DNA from: Phycisphaerales bacterium
GTDB lineage: Bacteria > Planctomycetota > Phycisphaerae > Phycisphaerales > SM1A02
Length of the DNA stretch: 44,520 nucleotides
NCBI GenBank assembly: GCA_040401635.1
Contig: JBBAOD010000003.1
Location: 1 to 44,520 of the forward strand
Reading direction: 5' to 3'
Position 1 is the first letter of the stretch; the number at the start of each line of letters is the position of its first letter. This document shows, piece by piece, positions 1 to 31,313 of the stretch. The notes below the pieces were generated by a model, which made no database searches, was not told where the DNA came from, and worked only from the letters and a program-made list of their open reading frames with translations. Both the position numbers and the translations under genes were made by a program.

Positions 1-216
1 GCAGGCGATGAGCGGATTGCGTTGTTTCTTCCGGACGGAAGTGCTGCGGCAGTGCGTGAATTGTGGATTCAAGCGGGGGCGCGGTCGACTCGGGTTTCGA
101 TCGACCCGCTCTTTGGTGAAGTGCGTCGTATTGATAGCTCTGCGCCGGTCACCCGAACCGGACCAGTCAGTCGCTCGCGCGATGGTGGCGCAAAGCCGCG
201 GAGGAGTGCGCCATGA
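1..216 (+). CDS. 3' end of a pseudopilin-like gene (GspH/FimT-like C-terminus), 5'-truncated by the window edge
   Basis: Frame 1 is open from base 1 to TGA 214-216 (...ERIALFLPDGSAAAVRELWIQAGARSTRVSIDPLFGEVRRID...). The stop overlaps the next start (ATGA at 213-216). It sits at the head of a pseudopilin operon. Confidence 0.4.
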   Translation, partial: AGDERIALFLPDGSAAAVRELWIQAGARSTRVSIDPLFGEVRRIDSSAPVTRTGPVSRSRDGGAKPRRSAP

Positions 217-620
217 AGCAACGAGGCTCCGTGCTGTTAGAGGTGCTACTTGCCACGGCAGTTTTTTCGTTTGCGGGCATTGTGGTACTTGGTGTTGTTG
301 ATGGCGCTGTCGCTGACGGCGCGCGCGCAGCACGAAGGTCACTGGCGATGGACGTTGCTCGATCACAGTTGGCGCGCATGGAGGCAGGAATTTCTGACGA
401 CTCACAAGATGATCGCGCGGTACCTGGACTGCGAGTGGAATCACGCATGGAGCCTTCCGACTTCCCTGGATTGGCGCTCGCCGTGGTAGAGGTCTATGAC
501 GAACAGCCTGATGGGCGTAATGACGAGGCGACCAATGATCCACCGCGCTTGGCGGTACTTCGGCAATTGATGCGCGGCGATGGCGGCGGCGGTACGGAAC
601 GCCCGGAGGTTTCCCGATGA
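213..620 (+). CDS. Minor pseudopilin, GspI-like (degenerate prepilin N-terminus)
   Basis: The N-terminus MKQRG/SVLLEVLLATAVFSFAGIVVLG has Gly, then Glu at +5, then a hydrophobic helix. Small size (135 aa). 4-nt overlaps with both neighbours. Confidence 0.6.
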   Translation: MKQRGSVLLEVLLATAVFSFAGIVVLGVVDGAVADGARAARRSLAMDVARSQLARMEAGISDDSQDDRAVPGLRVESRMEPSDFPGLALAVVEVYDEQPDGRNDEATNDPPRLAVLRQLMRGDGGGGTERPEVSR

Positions 621-1255
621 ATCGCCGCCGAAATGCACGTGGATTCACGCTGTTGGAAGCGCTGATTGCTGTGGGCATGCTGATGTTGCTGCTCGGTGCG
701 CTGGCGATGTTTGTTGAGGATCTCACCCGTACTCGGCAATTCTCGGCGCGCACGGCAGCGCAGACTCGGTCAGCGGATGCCCTGTACAGCGTGCTTGAGG
801 CAGCATTGCAAACAGCAGTTGTTGATGGCGGTCCGCTGGGTTCGGGAGTCACTGGAACAGATCGGTCAGTGCGGGTTCTTTCGTCGCGGACCGATGCGGG
901 CAGCGGCAGCGTGCGCGAACTGGCGCGGGCCGCGTTTGCTGCGCTATCTGCAACAGAGATCGGTGAGTCGTCTGGAAACATCACCATCACTCGCGGCGGA
1001 TCTTCCAGCGTGCTTCCTGCCACGGTGCGCGCCATGCGCGTGCGCTACTGGACACAGGGTGGATGGGCGGATTCGTTCGACTCACTCTCCGCGGGTTCGC
1101 TGCCGCATGCAGTTGAAGTGGCGCTGTGGTTTGGAGTGGCGGCCGCTCAATCGGAGGAAGAGAACTTTGGAACGCCGGATCGGGTTCGAACGATCGCGGT
1201 TCCTGATGCAGCGGGCGCTGATGGCGCGAACTTCATACCGGAGGCTGGGCAGTGA
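617..1255 (+). CDS. Prepilin-type N-terminal cleavage/methylation domain protein, GspJ-like pseudopilin
   Basis: MNRRRNARG/FTLLEALIAVGMLMLLLGALAMF is a classic G-FTLLE prepilin peptidase motif with Glu+5. ATGA overlap at 617-620 and GTGA overlap at 1252-1255. Confidence 0.8.
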   Translation: MNRRRNARGFTLLEALIAVGMLMLLLGALAMFVEDLTRTRQFSARTAAQTRSADALYSVLEAALQTAVVDGGPLGSGVTGTDRSVRVLSSRTDAGSGSVRELARAAFAALSATEIGESSGNITITRGGSSSVLPATVRAMRVRYWTQGGWADSFDSLSAGSLPHAVEVALWFGVAAAQSEEENFGTPDRVRTIAVPDAAGADGANFIPEAGQ

Positions 1256-3351
1256 ACTTGTACCCACGCATCCGAAGGCAGAGCGCGCGCGCCGCCGGAC
1301 GCGGTGTGGTGATGCTGGCCGTGTTGGTAGTACTTGCAGTTGCGGCGCTGGTTGCAGGTGGACTACTCGCCGCAGCGGAGGCAGAACATGCTGGATTGGC
1401 AGCGATGCGTGATCGAACGCAACAACGCGCCATTGCCTGGAGCGGATGCCAAGCAGTTGCCGCGCTCCTTTCGGCGCAGCGGCAAACCATCGCGGACGGG
1501 GAGACTCCGGAATTGCCTGATGAAGTGTTGCTTTATGAAGCAGACGGCGCACAGGCAGTGGCTCGGATATTGCCAGTTGGTCCGTCTGGCGAGCGATTGG
1601 TTTCCGAGTGCGCGAAGTTTGCGCTTGCAGGTCTTGACCCTGCAGTGCTCGCCGCCACTGGAGTAATTGATGCCAAAGCTGCGGCGGCCGCGGTGGCGCG
1701 CGGTGGAACTGCGGACGCGATTGAATCCATCGTGCAACCGGAAGTCGGGTTGACCGCCGACCGGGTGATCGGTCCAGTGGCTGCGGGAATTGCTGCGGGC
1801 GTTCGTCGATTGCAGGACAGCAGTTCCGGGTCCGGTGCGCGCGGCACCATTCCGGCGCGGGTTCGAACGTTGGCGGTGGCGGATGTTGCAACGCCATTTT
1901 CTGCACAGCGTGCACTTGGTAGTGGTGTGGCAGGCGCCATCATTGAGCGGCAGCCACTTGGTGCATGGAGTAGTGAAGGAATGGCCGCGATCGACGCACA
2001 GTCAGTGGGCGGTGCCGCGGAGCGCATGCGCAGCGCGCTTGCTGGAGAAACCCCTAAAAATCAGGGCGACCTAGTGCGCGCGATGCGCCTTTCGCAACTT
2101 CCAGTTGATAAGTGGAGCGCGGTTCTTGATGCAGTGATCGCGGGAGATTCAGCAGTCGAACGTCGGCAGATTGATATCGCAAATGCGCCTGAAGAGGTGC
2201 TGCGTGCCATTCCATCGGTTGGTACGGAACTAGCAGCCAAGATGATTCAAGCGCGTGCATCGCTTGGGGCGGGTGAGCGCGCGCAATTGGCATGGCCAGT
2301 GACTTCGGGCGCATTAACACCGGAGGAATTTGAAGCGATTGCTCCGTTTATATGTGCGCGTAGTTGGTTGTGGCGAACGCGCGTTGCCACTGGCGTTGTT
2401 GATGGGATGCAAGAGGGCAGTGCCATGCGCGGTATTGAAGTGTGGGAAGTGGTCATTGACCTTGCAGAAGATCCGCCACGCTTTGCCAGTATCCGTGATT
2501 GCACGTTGCTCCCCATTGCCTCTGCATTGGCAGAGCAGGAACGAACTGAACAAGCGACGCGCGGCGAGCGCGGCAGTGTCGCTACGGACGCAATGGTTGA
2601 TGACGAACTTGAGAATGAAGTTGCGATCACCAGTGGCGCCATGCAATTAGACCGAGAAAGTCAGGCAATTGCCGACTCTGATAGCGACCCCATGATTGAT
2701 AGTGCTGCCGATCAATTGGCCGATGGCGGAGCGGGCGCAGGTTCAGCAGGAGACGCGGTTGAGACACCAGCGCAGCGTCCGTGGCGATCACCTGCGGCGG
2801 ATGCGGTGCGTGACGCCGATGCGGCGCGTCGAGCGGAGAACGATCAGCGCCAAGCCGCGCAGCGCGAGCGTGATGCACAGGGTGCGTGGAAACCAGCCCG
2901 CGAGTCAGCGCCGGAGGCGCGGCAATGGGCGACGTTGGCCGATCGTGAGAAACAGTCACGTGAGGCGAATTCGCGAAGTTGGAGCACGCTTGCCGATCGC
3001 GAGCGCGCCGATCGCGAAGATCGTTCTGGGAAGTGGAAAACACTCTCCGACCGCGAACGGGACGACCGAGAAGCTCGATCGAACGAATGGAAGTCGCTCG
3101 GCGAGCAAGAACGCGAACGACGCGAAGCGCGCGACGCTGAAGAGCGCGCGCGTCGTAAGGAGCAATGGGCGTCCACGCCACAGCGATTCCGCACCATGCG
3201 GTGGGACGACAAAGATGTACCGCCAGATCCCGCCGGAGTTGCATCCCGTGCGCAGGAATCCGGTAAGGACGAGGAGCAGGCGACGGCATCGGGTTCTTCG
3301 ACAGGTGGGCTGTCGGGACGATGGCGCCGCCGTAGCGATTCGAGTCCGTAA
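1252..3351 (+). CDS. GspK-like pseudopilin with helix-hairpin-helix region and a long charged C-terminal extension carrying 18-aa tandem repeats
   Basis: The hydrophobic N-terminal helix lacks Glu+5 (GVVMLAVLVVLAVAALVAGGLL), as in GspK. HhH-like segment IDIANAPEEVLRAIPSVGTELAAKMIQARA. Position after I/J-like genes. The C-terminal ~250 aa is Arg/Glu/Asp-rich. Confidence 0.7.
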   Translation: MNLYPRIRRQSARAAGRGVVMLAVLVVLAVAALVAGGLLAAAEAEHAGLAAMRDRTQQRAIAWSGCQAVAALLSAQRQTIADGETPELPDEVLLYEADGAQAVARILPVGPSGERLVSECAKFALAGLDPAVLAATGVIDAKAAAAAVARGGTADAIESIVQPEVGLTADRVIGPVAAGIAAGVRRLQDSSSGSGARGTIPARVRTLAVADVATPFSAQRALGSGVAGAIIERQPLGAWSSEGMAAIDAQSVGGAAERMRSALAGETPKNQGDLVRAMRLSQLPVDKWSAVLDAVIAGDSAVERRQIDIANAPEEVLRAIPSVGTELAAKMIQARASLGAGERAQLAWPVTSGALTPEEFEAIAPFICARSWLWRTRVATGVVDGMQEGSAMRGIEVWEVVIDLAEDPPRFASIRDCTLLPIASALAEQERTEQATRGERGSVATDAMVDDELENEVAITSGAMQLDRESQAIADSDSDPMIDSAADQLADGGAGAGSAGDAVETPAQRPWRSPAADAVRDADAARRAENDQRQAAQRERDAQGAWKPARESAPEARQWATLADREKQSREANSRSWSTLADRERADREDRSGKWKTLSDRERDDREARSNEWKSLGEQERERREARDAEERARRKEQWASTPQRFRTMRWDDKDVPPDPAGVASRAQESGKDEEQATASGSSTGGLSGRWRRRSDSSP
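2926..3141 (+). repeat. In-frame 54-nt (18-aa) tandem repeat, about 4 copies, inside the GspK-like gene
   Basis: Protein repeats WATLADREKQSREANSRS / WSTLADRERADREDRSGK / WKTLSDRERDDREARSNE / WKSLGEQERERREARDAE. The DNA copies are diverged but clearly periodic. Confidence 0.75.
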
Positions 3352-3357
3352 ATACTA

Positions 3358-4845
3358 GTGAAATCACAGGTAGCGATCGATCTTGGCCACCGGCGCCTCC
3401 GCGCGGTGGAGGCAGTCGTAGAGCGCGGCCGTGCCACTGTGGCGCGGTGCGTGGATATCGAATTGCCAACGGAAGTTATTGACGGCACCGATGCGGTTCG
3501 TGGCGCGTTTGTGTCGCTCGCACTCCGCAACGCGGGTATTGCCACGGACCGTGCTACCTGGACAATTGTTCGCGATCGATTGTCGTTCAAGCGATTGGTG
3601 TTGCCTGGTGCCGAGCGCGACGAAATTGCCGCAATGGTTCGCCTGGCCATGTTGCGCGAAGCGGCGGTGTCTGCTGATGCAGTGGTTGACTTCGTTCCGA
3701 TTGGCGCGGAGGCATGGGCTGTGGCAGCTTCGGCGAAAGAAATTGCCGCAGTGCGAGCGATGGCCGTTGCCGCTGGAATCTCTGTTGAGCGGATTGCGCC
3801 GCGCACATTCGGAACCGCGTACTTGTTGGAAAATCTGACTGCAGTTGATGCGCGCGCCGATGACAACGATGCTCCTGATGCAGCCATCGATCTGTGCGGC
3901 GATGCAGTTGAACTGGTAGTTGCGGGCCGTGATGGACTGCGCGCAACGCGCGGTGCAACGGTTGTTGATCCGGATACGGATGCAAGCGTGACCGAAGCAC
4001 GTCGCTCCTGGAGTGGATTTCGCTTGCAGCAGCCCGATCAGCGACCAGCGGCAATTGACGTGATTGGCCCAACAAACGTGGCCGCGCGCGTGGTGGTGGC
4101 GCTGGCGGGTGACACCGGCCTGCCGGTTTCGCACTTGGCTGCACATCCAGACGTGACATGCACAGTGGATCCGGGCGCCGCATGGCCGCTGGTTGGACTA
4201 CTCCTTGAGGGCGCGCGCAAGCGTGAGCGCATTGACTTGGCAAATCCACGTCGCGCGCCCGACTTGGCGGCGCGTCGGCGGATGCAACTGTACGCAGTGG
4301 TTGCGATCATTGGAATTGCGTACGCCATGGGTTGGACCATTGGTCGCAAGGAGCGTGGCACCATCGAGGCGCGCCGCACCGAGTTGCGCGCCAAGGCTGA
4401 AGGTGCGCTTCTTGAGCATCGGCAGTTCAAGCGCGATGAACTGCGCGCGCGGCATATTGAGGCGTGGACCAGTGCGGACCTTCCGTGGCTTGACTCGTTG
4501 GCATACATCGCTGGTTTCGCACCGGATGCATCGCGCGTGGTGCTGACTGGTTGGAATGGTCAGGCGCTCTCCGACGAGGCCACCGTTGCCAAGGACGGGA
4601 CGATGAAGATCCCATCGGAAGTTCGGATTGCGATTGATGCCGAAGCGGCCGATCGTGCCACAGCGGATGCGTTGCGGGAGTCATTGGTTTCGAAGCGTGA
4701 CTTCAATGTTCGTCCCACCAGCGCAGAGGGAAAAGCTGGGCGCCGTCTGCCAGTGGCTGTGGAAATGGTGATCGATTCGTTGGACGGCCCACCCGTGCAG
4801 CGACCCGCCAGTGCCGCAGTATCAAGCCGCCGAGGTGTGCGATGA
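3358..4845 (+). CDS. GspL / PilM-PilN-like assembly protein (cytoplasmic actin-like domain + TM + periplasmic domain)
   Basis: GTG start. The N-terminus VAIDLGHRRLRAVEAVVERG resembles the PilM/GspL actin-like fold start. Single TM MQLYAVVAIIGIAYAMGWTIG near aa 310, followed by a coiled coil. Operon context. Confidence 0.65.
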   Translation: MKSQVAIDLGHRRLRAVEAVVERGRATVARCVDIELPTEVIDGTDAVRGAFVSLALRNAGIATDRATWTIVRDRLSFKRLVLPGAERDEIAAMVRLAMLREAAVSADAVVDFVPIGAEAWAVAASAKEIAAVRAMAVAAGISVERIAPRTFGTAYLLENLTAVDARADDNDAPDAAIDLCGDAVELVVAGRDGLRATRGATVVDPDTDASVTEARRSWSGFRLQQPDQRPAAIDVIGPTNVAARVVVALAGDTGLPVSHLAAHPDVTCTVDPGAAWPLVGLLLEGARKRERIDLANPRRAPDLAARRRMQLYAVVAIIGIAYAMGWTIGRKERGTIEARRTELRAKAEGALLEHRQFKRDELRARHIEAWTSADLPWLDSLAYIAGFAPDASRVVLTGWNGQALSDEATVAKDGTMKIPSEVRIAIDAEAADRATADALRESLVSKRDFNVRPTSAEGKAGRRLPVAVEMVIDSLDGPPVQRPASAAVSSRRGVR

Positions 4846-5948
4846 GTAGCACGGAAACTTCCAAGTCAACAGTAGCGGCGTGGGGTGAGCGCATGACCGC
4901 GCTTGTGCCGGTGCGTCTGCGCGTGCCGCTTTCATGGACCGGTGCGGCGCTGATCGCCGGAGCGCTGGGTTGGATGATTCACGGCGGGCGTTTGACATCA
5001 TTCTCTGGATTTGATCGTGCCGGCGCCGAGGCCGACATTGCCCGCACCAGTGAGTTCTTGCGCAGCGTTCGTGAAGAGCGAGATCGACGTCCGGAGATTG
5101 ACCGGCGGATCGCCGCCGCAGTGAGTCGATCACTTGGTGAGCGAACGGATGCGGTTGACACTGCGTTGCGAGCACGGCTGAATCGTATTGCCGAGGAGAC
5201 CGGTGTTCGTGATCTGATGGTTGCCACCGGCGCTGCAGTGGAGCGCAAGTCACCGGCTCGCCAAGAATTTGTGCGCCTGGCTCTTCCGCGATCCATGCGT
5301 GACGAGCCTGACTTTGTGGAGTTGCGCGCAACTATTTCCGGCGAAGGCGCTGTTGATCAAGTGCTTCGTTTGGTGTACCGAATCACGGTAGACCCAATGT
5401 TGAAGCGCGTGGAAGCCATCAAGTTTGACCCGATCAAAGATGGCGGTCGCATGCGAGTGACCATTCGCCTGAGCACCGCGTTTGTTCCTGGCTATGAGCC
5501 CGCTTCGTTGCCCGGTGCTCCAACCGCGGAAGCACTCGCTGGCTTTTCAAAGTACGCCGCGCTGGCTGCACGCAACCCCTTCCGTGTTCCATCAGCAACC
5601 GGCCCCGGAGCGAACACGCTGGTGACGGCGCCAGCAACGTCCCTTGGAGCGGCTGCGGCCACCACCGAAGTTGCCGGCGCAACCACAGCAACTGAGCCGG
5701 AGATTCCCGGCGGATTTCCATACGGACTATGGCTTCTCACCGGTGTGGTTGATGGACCCGCCGGTACCGAGGCGTATTTCAAGAACGCCGGCAACGGCGA
5801 GACACGCGTGCTGCGTGTCAACGAATCGATTGCGGAGTTTTCGTTCATTGGCCTTGATGCCGATGCAGCGCGGATAGTGGCGGGCGGCGCGACGTATCGC
5901 GTGCGCGTTGGAGAAAGTCTGGAGGCCCGCGCGCTTGAAGCGCCGTGA
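4842..5948 (+). CDS. Bitopic assembly protein, GspM/PilO-like with a PilP/GspC-HR-like C-terminal beta domain
   Basis: N-terminal TM LSWTGAALIAGALGWMIHGG. The C-terminal segment GLWLLTGVVDGPAGTEAYFKNAGNGETRVLRVNESIAEFSFIGLD...YRVRVGESL resembles secretin-contacting HR/PilP domains. ATGA and GTGA overlaps with neighbours. Confidence 0.5.
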   Translation: MSSTETSKSTVAAWGERMTALVPVRLRVPLSWTGAALIAGALGWMIHGGRLTSFSGFDRAGAEADIARTSEFLRSVREERDRRPEIDRRIAAAVSRSLGERTDAVDTALRARLNRIAEETGVRDLMVATGAAVERKSPARQEFVRLALPRSMRDEPDFVELRATISGEGAVDQVLRLVYRITVDPMLKRVEAIKFDPIKDGGRMRVTIRLSTAFVPGYEPASLPGAPTAEALAGFSKYAALAARNPFRVPSATGPGANTLVTAPATSLGAAAATTEVAGATTATEPEIPGGFPYGLWLLTGVVDGPAGTEAYFKNAGNGETRVLRVNESIAEFSFIGLDADAARIVAGGATYRVRVGESLEARALEAP

Positions 5949-8900
5949 GCAGGACACGACACATGAATACGAAGATATCGAACGCCAGCCGAATGATTCC
6001 AGAGGTTCTTGCAGTCTTTGCAGTCTCTGTCACCGCGCTCACTACGCCGGTTATTGCAGCGCACACCAGCAACGTGGCCAACACCGCAGCAGATCCAGCG
6101 GCGTCCATCATGCAAGATCCGCCAGCACCAACATCTGGCGGCATTCGCTTTGCGTTCAAAGGTCAGTCATGGGACCAGATTCTTGACTACTTCAGCCGCA
6201 CGACCAGTTTGCCAATTGTTCGCGAAACTGAAGTACCCAAGGGATCCGTGGACTACATCAGCGCGCGCGCTTACACGCTGCCAGAAGCGCTCTCCACACT
6301 CAATCAACTTCTGCAAACACAGAATGTGATGTTGCGAGTTGAGAAGGACAAGCTGTACTTGCAGAAGCTGGCGGATATGAAGCGGGAGAACATCCCGACG
6401 TTTGTGAATGAACTTCCCGCCACCGTGACTGATGACACCATCGTCACACTGATGCTGCCGTTGAAGACCGCGCGGGTTGGACCGATTTCCACGCAGCTGG
6501 CCAATCTGGTTGGCACGTACGGATCAGTCACCGCGCTTGAAGCACAAAACTCCTTGATTCTTGTGGAAACAGCGGGTCAAGTGCGACGCATGCTTAAGAT
6601 GATCGAATCGATTGATCATGCTGAGCCAGACAATGAAGTACGATTCTACCCACTCCGTCACGCCAAGGCGAACACACTGATCGCCAGCCTCTCATCTCTC
6701 ATTGGGCAACGGCAGATTGAGTATGTGATTGGTGCAGATGGCAAGAAGACCAAGATCGAAGAGAGCAAGATGGAAGGCCTCTCGATGACCGCTGACGAGC
6801 GCACGAACGCGATCGTTGCGCGCGGGGTTCGGTCGCGCTTGTTGCAGCTTGCGGATGTGATTGAATTGCTCGACGTTCCTTCTGAGGGATCGGCTGGTGC
6901 TGGTATCCCCGGTGCGCCCGCAGCGGTCACGCGTAGTGTGCGAACTGTCATGCTCCGCGGCGTTACCCCTTCCGAGGCCAAGTTGCGCCTTGATGAGCTG
7001 TACGCAACGCTTCCCAAGGAATTGAAGCCCACGGTGTTGGCGATGGATGAGGTTGGCAAGCTAGCCATTGTTGGACCGTCGCAGAGCGTTGCTGAAGGCG
7101 CTGCGCTGATCGAAGCGCTTGATGGCGATCGCCGCGTCCCGGGCAGCGCGCGCGTTGATGACATTGATCCGCAGACCGTCACGCTCATTCCGCTTCGCAA
7201 TGCCGACGCCACCAGCATTATTCCGCAAATCCGTGATCTGCAAACCGCCGCGCAGCGCAAAGTGGTGACGATTGCCGCTGGTCCTGACGGCCGCAGCGTC
7301 ATTGTCAGCGCACTTTCCAGCGAGAGCGACCAAGTGCGCCGCATCGTTGAGATTCTTGACCAAGCCGGTCGTATTGAACGTCGCACGCAGGTGCTGAAGG
7401 TTCAGGCAGTCAAGCCCGCTGACGCTATCGCCGCCGCCAAGCGCATTCTTGCTTCGGAGCGCGATCCTCGGAGTCCGGAAGGCGAGCTTGACATTGGTAT
7501 TGCAAGCGATGGCCGCACCTTGACCGTTGCTGGAACCCAAGCAGCGATCGCCCGATTTGAACAGGCGCTGAAATTGGCGGAGCAAGCCACGGTGGTCGAA
7601 CGTTCCACTCGCGTCTTTGAACTGAAGTATGCGCAGGCGACCAAGGTTGCACCGGCACTGCAGCAGATGGCGAAGCAGATCCTGACTCCCAAGGACGGCA
7701 CGCAGTATTCCGAGCCGCAGATTGAAGGCATCGACACGCTTCATCAGTTGAGTGTTACTGGCACTGAAGAGCAATTGAAATCCATTGCCACGCTGGTTGC
7801 CACGCTTGACCGCGCGGACCGCACCGGTCGCATGGTGGCAGTGCGTCAGGCAAAGGCGTCTGAACTGGCAACATCGGTTCGTGACCTGGTTGCCCGGACG
7901 CAGGTGGACGATCCATCGCATCCGTTCACTGCGCCGACCATTGAACCGATCGAACAGACCAATTCACTATGGATTGTGGGCGAACCGGCGCAACTTGCAG
8001 CGGTCGAAGAAGTGGTCCGGCAGCTTGACACAGTGACTCCTGGCCAACTCCCGCCGCTGCGACTACTGCAGGTCCGTGCCGCTGATGCAAGCCAAATGGC
8101 TCAATTGTTGACGGCACGTTACGACCAACGCCCGGCAGACCTGCGCCGCGAGAAGCCAGTCCGTGTTGATGCGGATACGGCTACCAACACACTGATCGTG
8201 ACTGCTCATGAAGAGGTGTTCCCGGAAATTCGCGAATTTATCGAGAGCGTCAATCGCAGCGGCGAGAAGGATGGCCAGCGCGAGACGGTGATTATTCCGT
8301 TGCGCGTGGGTCGTGCAGTGGAAGTAGCGGCTGCACTCGACAAGCTTTATCCACAACCACCCATGCCGCTGGATGCACGCGGTCGTCCGCTTCCGCACTT
8401 GCAGAAGCAGAAGGACATCTTCATCAGCGCCGATGCCGCTACTAACACAGTGATTGTTGAGTGCCCAGGCGAACGCAAAGCGCAGTTTGAAGCAATCGTT
8501 GCACAACTTGACCGCATTGAAGCGCCGCCGCAAGCGGGTGTGCGGACTTGGCGGATCGATCGCGGCGACCTCGACAAGATTGCCGCGAGTATTCGCGGAC
8601 TGGCGCAGAGTGGTGCGTTGGCGGCACCATCGGTTGCCGGTCGTAAGAGCCCAGAAGTCACCGTGCAAGTGGAGTCTGCCAGTCGAACGCTGATTGTCAC
8701 TGGCGATGAAGCAGCATTCTCCAAGGTGGATGCAGTGGTCAAGGAATTGCAGGGTGTGCCCGCTGCAGGCTTCAAGACGTACGTTCTGAAGAGTGGCCGT
8801 ACTGACCAGGTCAGCTCGCTCCTCAAGCAAGTGCTCACGACCCGTGCTCGACGCGACATTCCTGGTGGCGAGAGCCAAGTAGAAGTGACCAGCGATCGTC

Positions 8901-11900
8901 GAACCGGAACATTGATTGTCAGTGCACCGGATTCATTGATTGCGGTTGCCGACCAGCTGGTGGCACAACTGGACGCGGCTCCGGCGGTCGCTGGCGCCGA
9001 CACGCAACAAGTCCGCGTACATGCGCTGACATTCGCGGATGCCAATCAATTGGCACCTGCGTTGCAGCAGGCATCTGCTGCGATGCCAAGTCCCGCAACA
9101 CAAGATCCGATGAAGGTGTCCATTGTTCCTGCGACTGGCTCCAATGCGTTGATTCTCACGGGAATCGCCCCTGATCTTGACGCCATCGAGAAACTGATCG
9201 ACCCGCTTGATAAGAATGGCACAGCGGATACTGCGCAAGTAAAGACGGTCATGCTGAAGCATGCGCGCGCAGAAACGCTTGCGCCACTGGTGGAGAAACT
9301 GCTCTCCGACCGCGCCATGATGAGCCTGCGGGACATGCCACAAAGTCTTCGCCAGGAATACTTGCGCCGCGGCATTGATCGGGCTCCCGTACGTGTTGCA
9401 GCTGACACTCGACTGAATGCGGTGATCATCAGCGGTCCACCCGCAGTATTGGAAACCGCCGATCAAATGGTGGCACAACTTGACGCAGAATCAGTACCGC
9501 AAGGTGGCGCGCAAGAAGTGCGCGTAGTCACACTTCGAAATGCAGAAGCATCAGAAATTGCCCAGACTATCACGCAGATGTTCGCCAACGATCCATCCGG
9601 CGCTGCTGCGCCATTGGTCACGGTCAATGCCAGTTCGAACAGCTTGATTGTCCGTGCCACCGAGGCGCAACACACGCAAATTGAAGGTGTGATTGAGCAA
9701 GTGGACGCTGCCGCAGGTGTATCTGGCCGAGAAATGCGCACGGTCGCGATCGATCCATCACGTGGTGACGCCTCAGAGCTCGCACGCATGTTGGAGCGAT
9801 CATTGAATCGCGAAGGCGGCGGCGGTGCCGAAGTCGTAACGATGGAAGAATTGATGAAGCGCGCACAGCAGGCCAAGCCCGCTTCACCAAGTGCACCAGC
9901 GCCTTCGCCCAGTGCAAAGCCGGTTACCCCCGCTGTCGTGCCCGCAGCTGCCCCTTCCCCTGCAACTACGAATCCAAGCACTCCAGCACCGCGCGCCGCT
10001 CCGCTTCCACAGCCGAACGCACGCTCGCAAGCCACTCCGCGCGCGCCGCACTTTGCAGCCGCACTTCTTGCCACCGCGCTTGCGCAGTCGAGCGGCGGAA
10101 TGAATCAGGCGGCAACGATCAACCAAGATGATGACACGCGCGTCACCATTACCGTTGATCCAAAGACCAACAGTTTGGTGATCGTTGGTTCAAAGCGCGC
10201 AGTGGAGCGCGCGCAGCGACTTGCTCAGCAAGCGCAGCAGTCCATCGCGCCGGCTGGAAGCGTGGTCCGCGTGGTGCAGCTTCCTGCTGGTGCCGATACC
10301 GCCGCGCTCCGTGAGGTGGTTCTGCAGACGGTGGCAGTGATGACCCCAGCGGGCGGGCGTATTGGTGACATTGCCCGTCGCTCATCGGTAGTTGCTGATC
10401 CACAAGGTGGAACACTGGTAATTTCGGCGCCCGAGCGCGACATCGATCAGATTCTTGATGCCACCGCAAAGATCGTTGCCGGTGCAAAGGGCACCGAGCC
10501 CACTAACAAGCCCGTACTCCGGACGTTCACACTTTCGCAAGCGCGGGCGGTGAAGTTAGCGAACACGCTGCAGCAATTGTTCGGCAGCCGCCGCGGCGCC
10601 AACCCGCTCGCCGCGCCGCAATTTAGTGCCGACGAACGCACCAACACGCTCATGGTCACTGCTTCGCCAGCGGCACTTCTAGAGGTAGAAGAGTTGGTTG
10701 CCAAGCTTGACACCGGTTCGCCCGCCGCGGACGTTCAGGTGAAGACCTTCGTCCTTGTGCACGCGCAAGCGGATGAATTGGTGTGGACACTTCGGCAGCT
10801 GTTGTCGGCCCGAACCGACTCACAGGGAATTCGTCTTGATGCTGACCGCGCCAGCAACCGCTTGATTGTCGCGGGAAGTGCAGATCAGATTGCCAGCGCA
10901 ACACAACTCTTGGCGGAACTCGACCGTCCATCAGATGTGGTTCGCACTACTGAGTTCCTGACTTTGAAGCACGCGGAAGCACAAAAGGTTCGCGAGGCAC
11001 TCGGCTACTTCTATGGTCCTGATGCGGTTGATGCCGAGACCCCAGGTCGCCGCGCGGTGCGGATTGTCACTGACCCCGCCACTAACTCGCTGGTAGTCAG
11101 TGCCCCGAAAGAGGAATGGGACGGCTTGCGTTCCATGATCAACAAGCTTGATAGCGAAGATTATGACTCCAACTTGCAGCTGCGGGTCTTTTCGTTGCGG
11201 AACGCGCAGGCAACTAGCGTCGCCACCGCCATCAACACAGCGTTCAAGGGCGACCAGCAAGAGCGGCAGCAGGTAGCGCCCGCTGGCCCCGATGGTCGAC
11301 CAACGCGGCAAGCCCCTGCGTATCTCGTCAAAGGCGAGAGTTGGGTGAGCGCCGTGGCGGATCCAGTGACTAATTCCGTGATTGTGAGTGCAAACCGCAA
11401 GAACCTTGGCAAGATTGAGGTGATCGTTCAGCAGTTGGATGCAGAGCGCGTGGCCGGCCTACCCGCGCCGCGTCTCATTCCTGTACTTGAAGGTCACAGC
11501 CCCACGCAAATTGCCGCAGCGCTTCGCACAGTGTTTGCGCCAGCGGAGGGCCAGCCACGCGGACTCAATTCGCCGCGCATCGTGCCGGATGAGACGGCTG
11601 GAACCATCATCATTCGCGCGGAAGACAAGGACTACGAAGACATGGCAGCACTGGCCGCGACGCTGCAGGGCATGCGCCCGGAGGCAAGTGGTTCGCTGTT
11701 CATGGTGGAGTTGAAGCACCTTTCTGCCGATGCTGCTGCGCAGACCGTCAATGGTCTTGGGCTGACGTCCGCAGGTGCCACCGATCCGAAAGGTCGAGTT
11801 GTTCGTGGCCCAGTAAAGGTCTTTGCGGTGCCGGGGCGGAACTCGTTGGCGATTGCCGCGCTGCCAGAAGATCGCGCACTGATTGCCGATCTGGTCGCCG

Positions 11901-14900
11901 GCATCGACACCGAGCCAACTTGGGCACAGAGCGAAGGCGAATTGGTGCGCCTCAGTAAGGCGGCAGCGCCTGCCGTGGCAGCTTCGCTGCAGAAGATGAT
12001 TGATGCCGCTGCAACGCCTGGAGCCAATAGCCTTGCCAAAGCGCTGCAGGAACAAGTGCGGCGTTTGCGAATTCGTCGCAGCGGCGTACTGACCGCGGAT
12101 TTGATGTTGGACCTCACCAAGCCGCTCAAACTGGTGGCTGACGAGAAGACCAATTCGATCATGGTGACGGGCGCCAAGGAAAATGTAGAAGCGGCACGCG
12201 AACTGATTGCCATGCTTGATGACGTGCCGATGACCGGCTCAGTCACCATGCGCATTCTGCCGATGCGGAACATTGACGCGCAAGAGTTTGCCACGGTGGT
12301 TCGTGAACTGTTCACGCAGGGCAAGGCGCTTGGCAAGATTCCTGGCACAACGCTCACTGGCGCACCCCAGGGTGATGTTGGAACCGCGCTCGCTGATGAC
12401 TTTGCGCTCACCGTAGTGGAGCGCACCAATACCGTGATCGTTGCTGGTCGCGACGAAGCAGTGGCACTGGTGGAAGCCATGCAACAGCGGCTCGACACCA
12501 CCGATGCGTCGGCCGCTTCAGCGGTTCGTAGTTATCCATTGAATCGCGCGGGCGCCACGGCGGTCTCGCAGCGACTGGAACAGTTCTTCAATGCCCAAGC
12601 CCAACAGAAGAACTTCCGCCCCGAAGACAAGGTGCGTATGGTGGCTGATGACCGCACCAACACGTTGGTGGTGAGTACTTCACAGCGAAGTTTCTCAGTG
12701 CTTGAGGAACTCTTGAAGCAACTCGACCGGGAAATCCCCGCTGATCTGCGCGAACTCAAGCTGGTGCAATTGACTCACGCGAGCGCCACACGCTTGGCCC
12801 CGCTCATCCAGCAACTCATGGATTCGCGCCTGGAACGCGTGCGTGCTGCGGAGCCACGCGCCGCTGACTTACAGAAAGTGACCATTCTGGCTGACGAACA
12901 AGCCAATACGCTCCTGGTATCCGGCGGCGCCGATGCGTTTGATGTCATCAAGGGAATTGTTGCGCAGCTTGACACCTTGGAGCGGACTGATGTCGCCCCG
13001 CTCCATGTATTGCCGATGAAGCGCGGCAACCTTGATCGCGTTGCGACCGCCGTCAATCAAATCATGGACCGCCGTTACGCAGACATGCCACAGACCGTGG
13101 CCAAGCGCGCACGTCCCTTGGTGATGACCGACCCGCGTTCCAACTGCTTGCTGATTGCCGCAACGGAACCCGATTTCAAGGACATCGAAAGCCTGGTGGC
13201 GCGTATCGAGGAGCAGCCAACGGATCCAGCGGTCGCCCTGCATGTCATCCCGGTCCAAGGTGTTCGTGTGGAAACTATTGCCCCACGCTTGCAGACGGTG
13301 ATGCGTGAACGCATGGCCACTCTCGGAGACACGGCCCGTCCCTCGGACCGAATCTCCATCGAGAGCGACCTTGCCACCACTACGTTGATCGTTGCTTCGA
13401 GCCAAGAAAACGCAGAGATCATCAAACAGTTGATTGATAGCCTGAAATCAGTGGGAAATGACAGCGCACTGACGCGTGACTTCCAGACAATCCAGCTGAA
13501 GAAGAGCCGAGCCACCGACATTGTCCAGTTGCTCGACAACATGTACATCCGCGAGGAAAACCGTCGCCGCGGCAACGACAGCGTGCGCGCCATTGTTGAT
13601 AGCCGAACCAATGCCGTGATTCTCTCGGGTGCGGCTTCTGACATCACCACCATGAGCAAGATTGTTGGCGAACTGGAAGCCACCAAGCCGCTGGAAGTGG
13701 TGGAGATTAAGTACATCCGCCTCAAGAGCGCCAACGTGCTGGAACTGATCAGTCTGATTGACAGCGTTCTCTCCGGAAATTCGCTGGCATCACGCGGTAC
13801 TCAGCAGGCCACTATTGTGCGCTATCTCAAGCAAATGCCCGGCGTCGATACCGAGAGCGCGGAAATGGAAATCAACGCCGCGGTGCGGCAGTCCATCAGC
13901 CTGACTCCGGACATTCGCTCCAACACGGTGATCGTGCGTGCGCCCAAGGACTCCATGGACTTGGTTGAGAAGATGATCGAAGACCTTGATCACGACGACA
14001 GTTCCGCCCAGAATGTGCGGGTGATCCGCATGGCTCACGCCGAAGCAGAGAGCGTCTTGGAGATTCTGAACGAACTGTTCCGCTTGAAAAAGCAGGGGAA
14101 TTTGTATGTTCTGAAGCCGCGCGATGGCGGAACCCCACCGTCTGCCGATGGTGCAACGCCCGGGACTGCCCCAGAGAACGCCGGACGATCCACCACGATT
14201 GCTGGTCTTGAACTGAACATGGTGCCTGATGAGCGCCAAGAGCTTTCCATTACTGTTGACCCGCGCACGAATAGTTTGCTAGTGAGCGGCACCCCGAACT
14301 ATCTGAGTGCAGTAGAGAAGGTAGTGAAGGAGCTGGACACAGATCAATTTGGCAATCGCGATCAGCATATTGTTCATCTGAAGAACGCAACCGCTATTGA
14401 GGTGGCAGAGACGCTCACTAAATTCGCGGACGGCGAGCGCAACAAACTACTAGAGGTGTACGGAAACAATCGGCAAGCTGCCTCCAGCCGTCTGCTTGAC
14501 GCACAGGTCACCGTTGTTGGCGATCAGAAGTCAAACTCTGTGCTGCTTACCGGCAGCCCGCGCTACGTGGAGAAGCTGAAGGGTGTCATCAAGGAGCTTG
14601 ACGTTGACCCGCCGCAAGTGTTGATTCAGGTGATGTTGGCCGAAGTGACCTTGGTCGACAATGAGGACATTGGTATTGAATTCTCACGTATCGACTATGG
14701 CGATGGCTATTACTCTGCGGGCGGATTTGGCCTGAATAAGACCGGATTTGGCACGTTGCAGCCCAAGGCTCCCGGTCTGGTTGGTCTTGCACCAGCACTG
14801 TTCTCGGGTATCGGCATTCCCAACATTGCCGTGGGCGGACCCGACTTTGATTTGTTGATCAACGCATTGGCATCACAGAACCGCGTGCAGATGCTTTCCA

Positions 14901-15715
14901 ATCCAAGCGTCATGGTGGCGAACAACACACGTGGTCGGATTCAGGTTGGTGAAACCATTCGAGTTCCTGATGCAGTCACCGTCAGCGCCGCCGGACAGCA
15001 AAGCGCAGTCAGTGCAGAAGAAGTGGGTGTGATTCTGGAAGTCACGCCATCAATTAACCCCGATGGATTTGTGAAGATGGCAGTGGAGCCAGAAATCAGT
15101 CGACTCAGTAAGCAGACAGTGGACATTTCGGAAAACTTCCGTAGTCCAATCATTGAGCGACGGCGTGCCAACACCACCGTCACGGTCCGTGACGGAGAAA
15201 CCGTAGTGATCGGCGGTCTCATCAATGATCGCTACGAACGCTCCGACCGCAAGATTCCAATTCTGGGCGACATTCCCATCATTGGCTTGGCGTTCCGGCA
15301 AAAGACCGAGACCACCGCCAAGACAGAACTGCTGATCGTCTTGCGGCCGCACGTGGTGCGCACGCCGCAGCGCATGCAGCAGATCACCGAGGAGTCGGTC
15401 GGTCGCATGTCCTTGCAGCCTGGTCTCAAGGAACAGATTCGTAAGGCTGAACTCAAGGGCACACAGGGCCGGTACAACGACAAGGGTGAGTGGGTTGACC
15501 CGATCGGCGCGCCTTCCGAGGCTCCAGCCGCCGACGGCGACGCACCAATGCCAAGAAAGGGCGACTCAACGCTGATCATGCCCGTCACGTCAGAGCCTGG
15601 CGATCAAGTGACCACCAAGCAAGCAAACGGCAGCATCACCATTGGCCCTAAGTTGCCAGCGCCAAGCGCAGAACCTTCGCCACCGACCGCCCCGCTTACA
15701 CCAAAGGCACCATGA
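5945..15715 (+). CDS. Giant secretin (GspD/PilQ family), 3256 aa, with about 30 tandem secretin N-domain modules
   Basis: The C-terminal secretin core (about 14610-15360) reads VLIQVMLAEVTLVDNEDIGIEF, LINALASQNRVQMLSNPSVMVANNTRGRIQVGE, TVTVRDGETVVIGGLINDRYERSDRKIPILGDIPIIGLAFRQK..TELLIVLRPHVV. Signal peptide MNTKISNASRMIPEVLAVFAVSVTALTTPVIAA (alternative ATG at 5963). N0-like start IRFAFKGQSWDQILDYFSR. After that comes a ~90-aa module recurring about 30 times. No in-frame stop. Confidence 0.9.
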   Translation: MSRTRHMNTKISNASRMIPEVLAVFAVSVTALTTPVIAAHTSNVANTAADPAASIMQDPPAPTSGGIRFAFKGQSWDQILDYFSRTTSLPIVRETEVPKGSVDYISARAYTLPEALSTLNQLLQTQNVMLRVEKDKLYLQKLADMKRENIPTFVNELPATVTDDTIVTLMLPLKTARVGPISTQLANLVGTYGSVTALEAQNSLILVETAGQVRRMLKMIESIDHAEPDNEVRFYPLRHAKANTLIASLSSLIGQRQIEYVIGADGKKTKIEESKMEGLSMTADERTNAIVARGVRSRLLQLADVIELLDVPSEGSAGAGIPGAPAAVTRSVRTVMLRGVTPSEAKLRLDELYATLPKELKPTVLAMDEVGKLAIVGPSQSVAEGAALIEALDGDRRVPGSARVDDIDPQTVTLIPLRNADATSIIPQIRDLQTAAQRKVVTIAAGPDGRSVIVSALSSESDQVRRIVEILDQAGRIERRTQVLKVQAVKPADAIAAAKRILASERDPRSPEGELDIGIASDGRTLTVAGTQAAIARFEQALKLAEQATVVERSTRVFELKYAQATKVAPALQQMAKQILTPKDGTQYSEPQIEGIDTLHQLSVTGTEEQLKSIATLVATLDRADRTGRMVAVRQAKASELATSVRDLVARTQVDDPSHPFTAPTIEPIEQTNSLWIVGEPAQLAAVEEVVRQLDTVTPGQLPPLRLLQVRAADASQMAQLLTARYDQRPADLRREKPVRVDADTATNTLIVTAHEEVFPEIREFIESVNRSGEKDGQRETVIIPLRVGRAVEVAAALDKLYPQPPMPLDARGRPLPHLQKQKDIFISADAATNTVIVECPGERKAQFEAIVAQLDRIEAPPQAGVRTWRIDRGDLDKIAASIRGLAQSGALAAPSVAGRKSPEVTVQVESASRTLIVTGDEAAFSKVDAVVKELQGVPAAGFKTYVLKSGRTDQVSSLLKQVLTTRARRDIPGGESQVEVTSDRRTGTLIVSAPDSLIAVADQLVAQLDAAPAVAGADTQQVRVHALTFADANQLAPALQQASAAMPSPATQDPMKVSIVPATGSNALILTGIAPDLDAIEKLIDPLDKNGTADTAQVKTVMLKHARAETLAPLVEKLLSDRAMMSLRDMPQSLRQEYLRRGIDRAPVRVAADTRLNAVIISGPPAVLETADQMVAQLDAESVPQGGAQEVRVVTLRNAEASEIAQTITQMFANDPSGAAAPLVTVNASSNSLIVRATEAQHTQIEGVIEQVDAAAGVSGREMRTVAIDPSRGDASELARMLERSLNREGGGGAEVVTMEELMKRAQQAKPASPSAPAPSPSAKPVTPAVVPAAAPSPATTNPSTPAPRAAPLPQPNARSQATPRAPHFAAALLATALAQSSGGMNQAATINQDDDTRVTITVDPKTNSLVIVGSKRAVERAQRLAQQAQQSIAPAGSVVRVVQLPAGADTAALREVVLQTVAVMTPAGGRIGDIARRSSVVADPQGGTLVISAPERDIDQILDATAKIVAGAKGTEPTNKPVLRTFTLSQARAVKLANTLQQLFGSRRGANPLAAPQFSADERTNTLMVTASPAALLEVEELVAKLDTGSPAADVQVKTFVLVHAQADELVWTLRQLLSARTDSQGIRLDADRASNRLIVAGSADQIASATQLLAELDRPSDVVRTTEFLTLKHAEAQKVREALGYFYGPDAVDAETPGRRAVRIVTDPATNSLVVSAPKEEWDGLRSMINKLDSEDYDSNLQLRVFSLRNAQATSVATAINTAFKGDQQERQQVAPAGPDGRPTRQAPAYLVKGESWVSAVADPVTNSVIVSANRKNLGKIEVIVQQLDAERVAGLPAPRLIPVLEGHSPTQIAAALRTVFAPAEGQPRGLNSPRIVPDETAGTIIIRAEDKDYEDMAALAATLQGMRPEASGSLFMVELKHLSADAAAQTVNGLGLTSAGATDPKGRVVRGPVKVFAVPGRNSLAIAALPEDRALIADLVAGIDTEPTWAQSEGELVRLSKAAAPAVAASLQKMIDAAATPGANSLAKALQEQVRRLRIRRSGVLTADLMLDLTKPLKLVADEKTNSIMVTGAKENVEAARELIAMLDDVPMTGSVTMRILPMRNIDAQEFATVVRELFTQGKALGKIPGTTLTGAPQGDVGTALADDFALTVVERTNTVIVAGRDEAVALVEAMQQRLDTTDASAASAVRSYPLNRAGATAVSQRLEQFFNAQAQQKNFRPEDKVRMVADDRTNTLVVSTSQRSFSVLEELLKQLDREIPADLRELKLVQLTHASATRLAPLIQQLMDSRLERVRAAEPRAADLQKVTILADEQANTLLVSGGADAFDVIKGIVAQLDTLERTDVAPLHVLPMKRGNLDRVATAVNQIMDRRYADMPQTVAKRARPLVMTDPRSNCLLIAATEPDFKDIESLVARIEEQPTDPAVALHVIPVQGVRVETIAPRLQTVMRERMATLGDTARPSDRISIESDLATTTLIVASSQENAEIIKQLIDSLKSVGNDSALTRDFQTIQLKKSRATDIVQLLDNMYIREENRRRGNDSVRAIVDSRTNAVILSGAASDITTMSKIVGELEATKPLEVVEIKYIRLKSANVLELISLIDSVLSGNSLASRGTQQATIVRYLKQMPGVDTESAEMEINAAVRQSISLTPDIRSNTVIVRAPKDSMDLVEKMIEDLDHDDSSAQNVRVIRMAHAEAESVLEILNELFRLKKQGNLYVLKPRDGGTPPSADGATPGTAPENAGRSTTIAGLELNMVPDERQELSITVDPRTNSLLVSGTPNYLSAVEKVVKELDTDQFGNRDQHIVHLKNATAIEVAETLTKFADGERNKLLEVYGNNRQAASSRLLDAQVTVVGDQKSNSVLLTGSPRYVEKLKGVIKELDVDPPQVLIQVMLAEVTLVDNEDIGIEFSRIDYGDGYYSAGGFGLNKTGFGTLQPKAPGLVGLAPALFSGIGIPNIAVGGPDFDLLINALASQNRVQMLSNPSVMVANNTRGRIQVGETIRVPDAVTVSAAGQQSAVSAEEVGVILEVTPSINPDGFVKMAVEPEISRLSKQTVDISENFRSPIIERRRANTTVTVRDGETVVIGGLINDRYERSDRKIPILGDIPIIGLAFRQKTETTAKTELLIVLRPHVVRTPQRMQQITEESVGRMSLQPGLKEQIRKAELKGTQGRYNDKGEWVDPIGAPSEAPAADGDAPMPRKGDSTLIMPVTSEPGDQVTTKQANGSITIGPKLPAPSAEPSPPTAPLTPKAP

Positions 15716-16290
15716 ATTTCCCGCCATCCATCTGCCTTGCGCTCGGTGCGTTGCTGAGCCTCACTGGTTGTGAGACCGTTTCCAAGGAAACATCAGACGG
15801 TCGTCCCATGCCTCCACATGCGCGTGTGCCGCAGGCGGCCCCGGATGGCGTAGCAGTCAACGCGATGAGTGTCTTGTATGCGCCGAAACCCACCGATAGC
15901 GATGCCAATGGTCGCCCCGATCGGCTCAGTATTGAGCTCTACCTCTTTGCGCGGCCGTACCCAACGCCGATTTGGCGCGACGGCACATTGAACGTCGCTG
16001 CGTACCGCATGGGCACCGCGGGATCGGCAACGGTACCGGGCGATCATCCCATTCATGTCTGGAGTATTCCCACGCGCGACCTTGATCTTGGCAGATTTCG
16101 CAGCCTGATCGGTGAGGGATATCGCTTCCAGGTATCGCTCTTGGATGATGGAGGCAACGATCGCATCGATGGAACGGCCATCGACTTCGTGACATGGTTT
16201 CGTCCATCGTCTGGCGCTTCGCCTATCTGGTCGGACGGTGTTCGATCCATTGCCTTTGAACCAATGGCATCAGGCGAAGTTCATCAGTAA
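15712..16290 (+). CDS. Lipoprotein, function unknown (candidate secretin pilotin/accessory)
   Basis: Lipobox in MNFPPSICLALGALLSLTG/CETV. ATGA overlap with the secretin stop. Last gene before a terminator. Confidence 0.75.
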   Translation: MNFPPSICLALGALLSLTGCETVSKETSDGRPMPPHARVPQAAPDGVAVNAMSVLYAPKPTDSDANGRPDRLSIELYLFARPYPTPIWRDGTLNVAAYRMGTAGSATVPGDHPIHVWSIPTRDLDLGRFRSLIGEGYRFQVSLLDDGGNDRIDGTAIDFVTWFRPSSGASPIWSDGVRSIAFEPMASGEVHQ

Positions 16291-28677: not shown

Positions 28678-28725
28678 GAAGTTCGTTGCTCTTGAGTGCT
28701 TGGAAGTAGGTATTGCTACAAGGAG

Positions 28726-29859: not shown

Positions 29860-29924
29860 GCGCTGTACCCGGGCAATATCAACCCGGAAATTGTTGATTC
29901 AGTCCCCGTACCCCGCGCCTGGCC

Positions 29925-31259: not shown

Positions 31260-31313
31260 CCGCGTTGAATTGATTGGCTGGCATTGAATGACTGCATTGA
31301 TTGACTCGCAACC

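Follow-up and report, generated by a model that had tools for sequence, protein, structure and literature searches.

The 44,520-nucleotide stretch of DNA analysed here (positions 1 to 44,520 of contig JBBAOD010000003.1, forward strand, assembly GCA_040401635.1; hereafter the window) comes from a freshwater Phycisphaerales bacterium and encodes on its plus strand a secretin of 3256 amino acids (aa), contained in one unbroken open reading frame (ORF; 5945..15715) with a GTG start. In the database entry for the same protein (P0001), the start is called at the ATG at 5963, which gives 3250 aa. From an average residue mass, the full-length product would be of roughly 350 kDa. Characterised secretins follow a nearly fixed plan, in which an N0 domain is combined with two to five ring domains, and they are held to be about as long as the periplasm is wide. 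The window protein is a GspD-class secretin in which a signal peptide and an N0 domain of the GspD type are followed by an uninterrupted series of 32 Secretin_N modules, the pore domain and a Pro-rich tail, arranged as follows.

5945..15715, plus strand: giant secretin gene, 3256 aa and stop codon (Pfam, NCBIfam, a hidden Markov model (HMM) of its own repeats, and the ratio of nonsynonymous to synonymous substitution rates, dN/dS)
5945..6061, plus strand: Sec-type signal peptide, aa 1-39 (translation inspected by eye)
6128..6394, plus strand: N0 domain of the GspD type, aa ~62-150 (profile of family N-termini)
6413..9727, plus strand: N-domain modules 1-14, aa 157-1261 (own repeat HMM, each E <= 5e-10; Pfam Secretin_N)
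9728..10258, plus strand: module 15, split by an insertion of ~95 aa (half-modules on either side seen in the translation)
10247..14620, plus strand: N-domain modules 16-32, aa 1435-2892 (own repeat HMM; modules 29-32 also modelled)
14621..15361, plus strand: secretin pore domain (PF00263 at aa 2974-3139, E 1.2e-48)
15362..15712, plus strand: C-terminal tail (two S-domain-like helices, then a disordered Pro/Ala-rich stretch)

The signal peptide has, as judged by eye, a basic N-terminus, a hydrophobic core and the cleavage site VIA-A, while the first N1-type module stands directly after the N0 domain. An AlphaFold2 model covers aa 2503-3256, with a predicted local distance difference test score (pLDDT) of 69 overall and 80-90 within domains. 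The two helices of the tail are assigned by DSSP to residues 639-652 and 657-664 of this model, beyond which pLDDT is below 50.

The Pfam family Secretin_N (PF03958) matches the giant secretin with an overall E of 5.5e-271 and in 26 stretches that are each significant on their own. Apart from the pore domain, the other Pfam matches are only weak and of the KH type, as is expected because the N-domain fold is KH-like. A profile built iteratively from the protein's own repeats recognises 32 modules within aa 157-2892 (each E <= 1.7e-9), which are 75-120 aa in length, share a pairwise identity of only about 22% and are separated by gaps of -9 to +12 aa, the sole larger break in the array being ~95 residues at aa ~1261-1353. 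In the AlphaFold2 model, modules 29-32 each have the order beta-alpha-beta-beta-alpha (DSSP; pLDDT 80-90) and are joined by linkers of 5-7 residues, with the chain continuing straight into the barrel. An earlier note on this DNA, made from the letters and their translations, had described a single uninterrupted 3256-aa ORF with about 30 tandem N-domain modules and a secretin core at its end. The ORF and its core are borne out by the PF00263 match and the GspD class of the pore, and the identity of the repeats as secretin N-domains by the PF03958 match and the four modelled modules; the tandem array likewise stands, with its count corrected to 32. The D.RTN(S/T)L(I/V)V strand, which the same note had placed at the end of each module, is actually the third strand, and the second helix comes after it (DSSP of the model).

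The larger break in the array is an insertion inside module 15, between the second and third strands, which is Pro/Ala-rich and contains a basic stretch followed by an Ala/Leu hydrophobic patch of 10-14 residues, often ending in A-Q ('RAPHFAAALLATALAQSSGG'). Distant homologues have the insertion at the same position, and a 13-aa segment with a mean hydropathy of at least 1.5 is present in 25 of 39 of them. In appearance the patch resembles a relic signal peptide, or else a loop that contacts the membrane or a partner.

As for the class of the secretin, the NCBIfam equivalog for GspD, TIGR02517, reaches 880 bits, its curated cut-off being 351, while the PilQ model TIGR02515 scores 355 bits, both totals being inflated by the repeats; the best stretch of the TIGR02517 match spans model positions 156-600. 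The best sequence match of the pore in the PDB is E. coli GspD (5wq7, E 6.5e-49), the others being much weaker (PilQ, 1e-26; InvG, 1.4e-10). A Foldseek search with the model of aa 2503-3256 yielded secretins without exception among the top 40 matches, of which the top 11 were all type II secretins (7e-28 to 3e-21). At the other end of the protein, a profile of the family N-termini (A6) matches the N0-N1 region of XcpQ, PulD and GspD in the PDB at E 1e-13 to 1e-9, over chain residues ~21-172. The Pfam model of the GspD N0 domain (PF21305) matches 7 of 14 homologues, with a best value of 4e-7, and the window sequence itself falls below its threshold.

Two other classes were considered and rejected. 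The type IV pilus PilQ class is not supported, as the Pfam search found no AMIN domain in the giant secretin and the PilQ matches are far weaker than those to GspD. The type III SctC/InvG class is likewise set aside, as the InvG match is only 1.4e-10 and no genes of a type III secretion system were found in the window or the related loci.

The pore and the N0-N1 start of the window protein thus match GspD of E. coli, V. cholerae and enterotoxigenic E. coli (ETEC), PulD of Klebsiella and XcpQ of P. aeruginosa (reference structures PDB 5wq7, 5wq8, 5zdh, 6hcg and 5wln), and, as with GspD, the gene sits in an operon of gspF-G-H-I-J-K-L-M-type genes that includes a candidate HR-domain partner, with a lipoprotein gene following it. 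It departs from the standard GspD plan (N0 + N1-N3, about 600-800 aa), however, as it has 32 N1-type modules instead of three and about five times the length, and one of its modules bears the conserved insertion with the hydrophobic patch. The surrounding system also differs from GspD systems, in that GspM-like and GspC-HR-like parts occur in one protein and the GspK-like protein is about double the usual size.

The best-characterised secretin lengthened by extra N-domain rings is PilQ of Thermus thermophilus, a protein of 757 aa with six stacked rings (N0-N5), whose complex of pore and rings, 350 A in length, bridges the greater part of a wide periplasm (PMC5745081). It resembles the window protein in this lengthening; in contrast, its pore is of the PilQ rather than the GspD class, it serves a type IV pilus and DNA uptake, and it has six rings as against 33 pre-pore domains here and up to 75 in the family described below. 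Another enlarged secretin among the sequence and fold matches is DR_0774 of Deinococcus radiodurans (PDB 8co1, 740 aa), which is named a type IV piliation system protein, is far shorter and matches much more weakly (1.2e-16).

A search of 5.8 billion proteins yielded 178 relatives with lengths of 3.2-5.0 thousand amino acids (kaa), all of which, as listed, carry Secretin_N and, where complete, also the Secretin domain, and all of which have source names within Planctomycetota or Phycisphaerae. When the module profile was run with HMMER against all of 1.84 billion cluster representatives, 2392 proteins were detected at E <= 1e-30, and its top 150 clusters (50% identity) have 26-61 matched modules. 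Among the 273 family proteins in which modules were counted, the number ranges from 20 to 74 with a median of 42, the longest cluster members (6805 and 6885 aa) having 74; one of these, OQB85541.1 (6805 aa, Planctomycetes bacterium ADurb.Bin126), is automatically named 'Type II secretion system protein D precursor'. With 32 modules, the window protein therefore lies at the short end of the family.

A family-specific two-module block (LYPxPPMPLDxRGRPLPHL), which was searched for at the locus level with a 4-sequence alignment, occurs in about 185 GTDB species genomes, almost all of them labelled Phycisphaerae or Phycisphaerales and derived from lakes, rivers and oceans. Over this block the window is about 100% identical to contigs of metagenome-assembled genomes (MAGs) from lakes. 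Judged by the sequences retrieved, the family is confined to Phycisphaerae. Three contigs with giant secretins (L076, L021 and L061) are labelled 'Cyanobacteria bacterium CYA' and 'uncultured Isosphaeraceae', which probably reflects errors in the binning or labelling of MAG contigs. The shortest proteins (32-33 modules, about 3.2-3.4 kaa) are those of the window's nearest relatives among lake and river MAGs, marine relatives reach at least 4.3 kaa, and an anaerobic-digester MAG has 74 modules; the module number may track lineage or habitat.

The giants of Phycisphaerae MAGs that are automatically annotated as 'GspD' or 'secretin N-terminal domain-containing' share the block and have collinear, position-specific modules, and those with flanks examined have the same operon as the window, while the window protein lacks some module blocks of the longer ones. 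No mention of secretins of such size was found in full-text literature searches or in papers on planctomycetes and giant genes. Descriptions of planctomycete genomes count as 'giant genes' only those longer than 15 kb (PMC7783415, PMC8882080), and most of the giant-secretin family falls below this threshold. The family is apparently undescribed in the literature, though its sequences are public under automatic GspD-type names. Its component parts are all of known kinds, and the window gene is an ordinary, short member.

The modules were compared by scoring each window module against every module of five relatives and chaining the best collinear path. All 32 window modules map one-to-one and in order onto an orthologue of 77% identity, which has 33 modules, the extra one lying between positions 24 and 25. 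In relatives that are only ~30% identical overall, 27-32 window modules were mapped, and the chain partner is the best-scoring module in 26-30 of these 27-32 cases. Orthologous modules score mostly 100-450, with a few dropping to 53-94 in the most distant relatives, as compared with a median of 45 and a maximum of 114 for paralogous ones. Differences in length among the relatives represent gain or loss of module blocks, as with modules 11-15, 18-21 and 28-34 of the relative P0048, which have no counterpart in the window protein. Since each position has its own orthologue in distant relatives, the modules are not interchangeable spacers. The comparison indicates that the module array is ancient, with every position conserved for its own sake.

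A gene of this kind may also be suspected to be an artefact, arising from repeat-driven misassembly, from fusion of normally separate genes or from decay into a pseudogene, and two observations lend some colour to this, as the frame is broken inside the gene in two long 'chromosome' records. One is L071 (CP159477, 'Phycisphaerales bacterium ac7'), a complete genome with breaks at 11900-12120 of the locus, and the other is L063 (MAG PNC22), a chromosome-level record with breaks at ~14360-14960 and 18557 of the locus; both show frame shifts within otherwise continuous homology, which may reflect either errors of sequencing or genuine pseudogenes. Among the 80 records listed, only that of ac7 has a non-MAG label. 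Against an artefact, the longest DNA-level repeat in the gene, tandem and dispersed repeats being looked for, is 38 nt, at 61-76% identity, so that repeat-driven misassembly is of no concern. Moreover, 43 of 45 loci from related species, which span different species, assemblers and habitats, have a frame that stays open as far as its stop codon or the limit of the fetched sequence, the remaining two being those just described. The earlier note had itself named repeats that fail to score as secretin N-domains, assembly error and orthologues split into several genes as grounds on which the finding could fall, and on all three counts it stands. The dN/dS values against three orthologues are 0.03, 0.10 and 0.16 and are low in every 400-codon segment, and the ordered one-to-one modules of the 77%-identical orthologue, together with the 26-61 modules carried by the top 150 clusters, likewise speak against an artefact, which can for practical purposes be dismissed. 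The ORF is one intact gene, with purifying selection acting over its whole length.

The giant secretin gene is part of a type II secretion operon, in which it is about the eighth gene. Where relatives are represented by longer contigs, the operon starts with gspF and gspG and continues with three or four pseudopilin genes and with genes for a GspK-like protein, a PilM_2/GspL-like protein, a protein of ~330 aa, the giant secretin and a small protein. Two of these collinear loci, L001 and L002, carry T2SSF, T2SSG, T2SSJ, T2SSK and PilM_2. The window starts part-way into the operon, and its genes are collinear orthologues of those of the relatives (BLASTP), as listed below.

213..620, plus strand: GspI-like minor pseudopilin, 135 aa (NCBIfam TIGR01707 E 4.5e-6, below the curated cut-off)
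617..1255, plus strand: GspJ-like minor pseudopilin, 212 aa (N_methyl 1e-5; T2SSJ 0.007; NCBIfam gspJ 4e-6, sub-threshold)
1252..3351, plus strand: GspK-like minor pseudopilin, 699 aa (NCBIfam T2SS_GspK E 0.008, sub-threshold; weak HHH_3)
3358..4845, plus strand: GspL/PilM-like inner-membrane platform protein, 495 aa (28% identical to its L002 orthologue)
4842..5948, plus strand: candidate platform protein, 368 aa (conserved position; AlphaFold2 model and Foldseek)
15712..16290, plus strand: translationally coupled lipoprotein and pilotin candidate, 192 aa (4-nt overlap of its start with the secretin stop; lipobox LTGC)

The GspI-like gene has collinear orthologues in L001 and L002, and the L002 orthologues of the GspJ-like and GspK-like proteins carry T2SSJ and T2SS_GspK (the latter at 5.4e-9), respectively. 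The GspK-like protein is about twice the usual size, as is its L001 orthologue (also 699 aa), and its C-terminal end is highly charged, with about four W..L.DRE...RE repeats in the translation. The GspL-like protein consists of a cytoplasmic domain, a hydrophobic segment (LYAVVAIIGIAYAMGWTIG; a transmembrane helix by eye) and a periplasmic domain, and its L002 orthologue matches Pfam PilM_2 and NCBIfam pilM (4.9e-12).

An ORF of ~330-370 aa lies directly upstream of the giant gene in most of 51 related loci. In the window this is the 368-aa protein, which has an N-terminal hydrophobic segment (a transmembrane anchor by eye), a coiled coil and a PilO/GspM-like domain, followed in its C-terminal part by a Pro-rich linker and a PilP/GspC-HR-like beta domain. 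A profile sequence search gave no PDB match for it. Its AlphaFold2 model, made from an alignment of database homologues, has a pLDDT of 61 overall and of ~80-85 in the C-terminal domain, with ~80 residues of linker (aa 213-292) below 50. By Foldseek, the N-terminal part matches PilO (3jc8_Oa, 2.3e-3), and the C-terminal domain matches PilP (2y4y, TMt 0.65, root-mean-square deviation (rmsd) 2.8 A) and the HR domain of GspC (3oss_C, TMt 0.74, rmsd 2.2 A; 6hcg_e, TMt 0.70). Taken together, the matches of this domain to PilP and to the HR domains of GspC, PulC and LspC have TMt 0.65-0.74, rmsd 2.0-2.8 A and a probability of ~1.0, but E-values of only 0.06-0.3. According to the PDB descriptions, 3oss and 6hcg contain the HR domain solved in complex with a secretin N0 domain, and because the HR-like fold matches these two, the N-terminal end of the giant secretin would be held by the inner-membrane platform. 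From its model, the 368-aa protein is likely the N0-binding partner of the giant secretin, and the PilO/GspM-like and PilP/GspC-HR-like parts, usually separate, appear to be fused in it.

Downstream of the secretin gene, the 4-nt overlap between the secretin stop and the lipoprotein ORF recurs in each of the 8 related loci with this ORF. Of these 8, 6 have a recognisable lipobox, the N-termini of L001 and L016 as printed not reaching one, and the protein is 63% identical to its L001 orthologue and 30% to that of L002. It has no Pfam or NCBIfam match, and no likeness to known pilotins was found there. From its position, lipobox and conservation, we infer a pilotin candidate.

Alternatively, the machine might not serve protein secretion in the first place but belong, within the type IV filament superfamily, to the pili or uptake systems, such as those for fimbriae, DNA uptake or polysaccharide 'fishing', in which the conduit guides a fibre; this would fit whether the modules build a long tube or only a short vestibule. 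The platform proteins match PilM, PilO and PilP best and not GspL, GspM and GspC, which favours such an apparatus, as does the presence of fimbriae in cultured Phycisphaeraceae (PMC7783415, PMC8882080) and the proposal that planctomycete pili act as fishing rods in polysaccharide uptake (PMC8882080). However, GspD is by far the better match than PilQ for the pore and N0-N1, the GspD model scores 880 bits and the PilQ model 355, with repeats inflating both, the AMIN domain of Pfam is absent, the major pilin of the relatives is of the T2SSG type, and GspI/J/K-like minor pseudopilins are present. The pore, N0 domain and pseudopilins point to type II secretion rather than to fibre handling, and a pilus or uptake apparatus is considered improbable.

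The protein is the GspD-class outer-membrane secretin of a type II secretion-type machine, and we somewhat favour the reading that its 32 modules stack as rings into a continuous periplasmic conduit. The subunits would form the usual homo-oligomeric ring, with the pore in the outer membrane, placed there with the lipoprotein as pilotin, and with the N0 end bound to the inner-membrane platform protein through its HR-like domain. Between these two ends, the 32 modules would be successive rings of one continuous periplasmic conduit, through which a pseudopilus would push folded proteins out. At ~3.5-4 nm per ring, a value estimated from the 350 A of T. thermophilus PilQ, the 33 rings would give a conduit of ~115-130 nm. 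Such stacking is supported by the abutting of the modules, with linkers of at most 12 aa and no flexible spacer other than one intra-module loop, by the position-specific conservation of every module, and by the precedent of the six N-domain rings of T. thermophilus PilQ (PMC5745081).

Several points weigh against this conduit. Cultured Phycisphaeraceae are reported to be cocci of 0.3-1.3 um in which crateriform structures are missing (PMC7783415, PMC8882080), and internal membranes are said to be apparently absent from Phycisphaerae as a class (PMC12673574). A conduit of 115-130 nm would take up 10-40% of the diameter of the cultured cells, and relatives with 50-74 modules would need 180-290 nm. 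The AlphaFold2 monomer has a predicted template modelling score (pTM) of 0.43 and deviates from GspD chains by ~20 A rmsd, and for this reason it is uninformative on the geometry between modules. Neither the window nor the flanking DNA of L001 and L002 contains a gspE, the gene of the GspE ATPase, the HR assignment comes from Foldseek matches with weak E-values (0.06-0.3) to one domain of a low-confidence model, and the lipoprotein is a pilotin candidate by its position, lipobox and conservation only. The small cocci without crateriform structures and the apparent lack of internal membranes also make doubtful, for this host, the enlarged or compartmentalised periplasm that the earlier note had suggested. 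Its other suggestion, a conduit reaching well beyond the outer membrane, contradicts secretin topology, as the N-domains of every solved secretin known to us precede the pore in the chain and lie in the periplasm.

It is possible, though we give it less credence, that only the few modules nearest to the pore form vestibule rings, while the other ~28 of each subunit form no closed tube and serve instead as extra concentric layers, as arms tethering the pore to the inner-membrane platform, or as docking sites for peptidoglycan, substrates or partner proteins. Position-specific conservation suits individual binding roles as well as it suits ring stacking, a straight tube of 115-290 nm is hard to fit into cells of this size with a reported lack of internal membranes, and the ~80-residue disordered linker in the HR-bearing platform protein shows that flexible reach is already used in the system. 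On the other hand, the linkers between modules are very short, like those of rigid N1-N2-N3 stacks. To our knowledge, no solved secretin (GspD, PilQ, InvG) shows N1-type domains outside rings, which also counts against modules that form no tube. The one secretin with more domains, T. thermophilus PilQ, has all six as rings (PMC5745081).

The stacked conduit may be extended to the family as a whole, whose arrays (33 domains including N0 in the window protein, and up to 75) would form a continuous oligomeric tube of 115-290 nm in which each ring is a position-specific station, but we regard this broader proposal as rather doubtful. If true, no trans-envelope channel known from bacteria would come near the tube in length, and Phycisphaerae would have an unseen kind of envelope, in which either the two membranes are locally very far apart or the conduit extends deep into the periplasm or along it.

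Phycisphaerae are a bacterial class that keeps secretins with 20-74 N-domains, conserved by position and under strong purifying selection. Arrays conserved at this scale therefore imply either an unrecognised geometry of the envelope at the sites of secretion or a role of N-domains beyond a short vestibule. As the family forms a natural length series (32, ~50 and 74 modules), the question whether ring number sets channel length is directly testable. The giant secretins may also bear on the export of polysaccharide-degrading enzymes by the abundant freshwater and marine Phycisphaerae.

Elsewhere in the window, one ORF (23114-24643) encodes a ThuA domain (E 3e-77) with a C-terminal DUF6677. A further cluster spans 27562-36673. 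Its minus-strand genes, 27562-28677 and 28726-29859, each encode a vWA-domain protein, and the plus-strand genes after them encode a protein with a weak Double-GTPase 2 match (29925-31259), a GAP1-N2/GAP1-M protein (31314-33779) and a 989-aa protein without matches. This vWA/GTPase/GAP1 cluster looks like a GTPase-associated system of the conflict or defence type.

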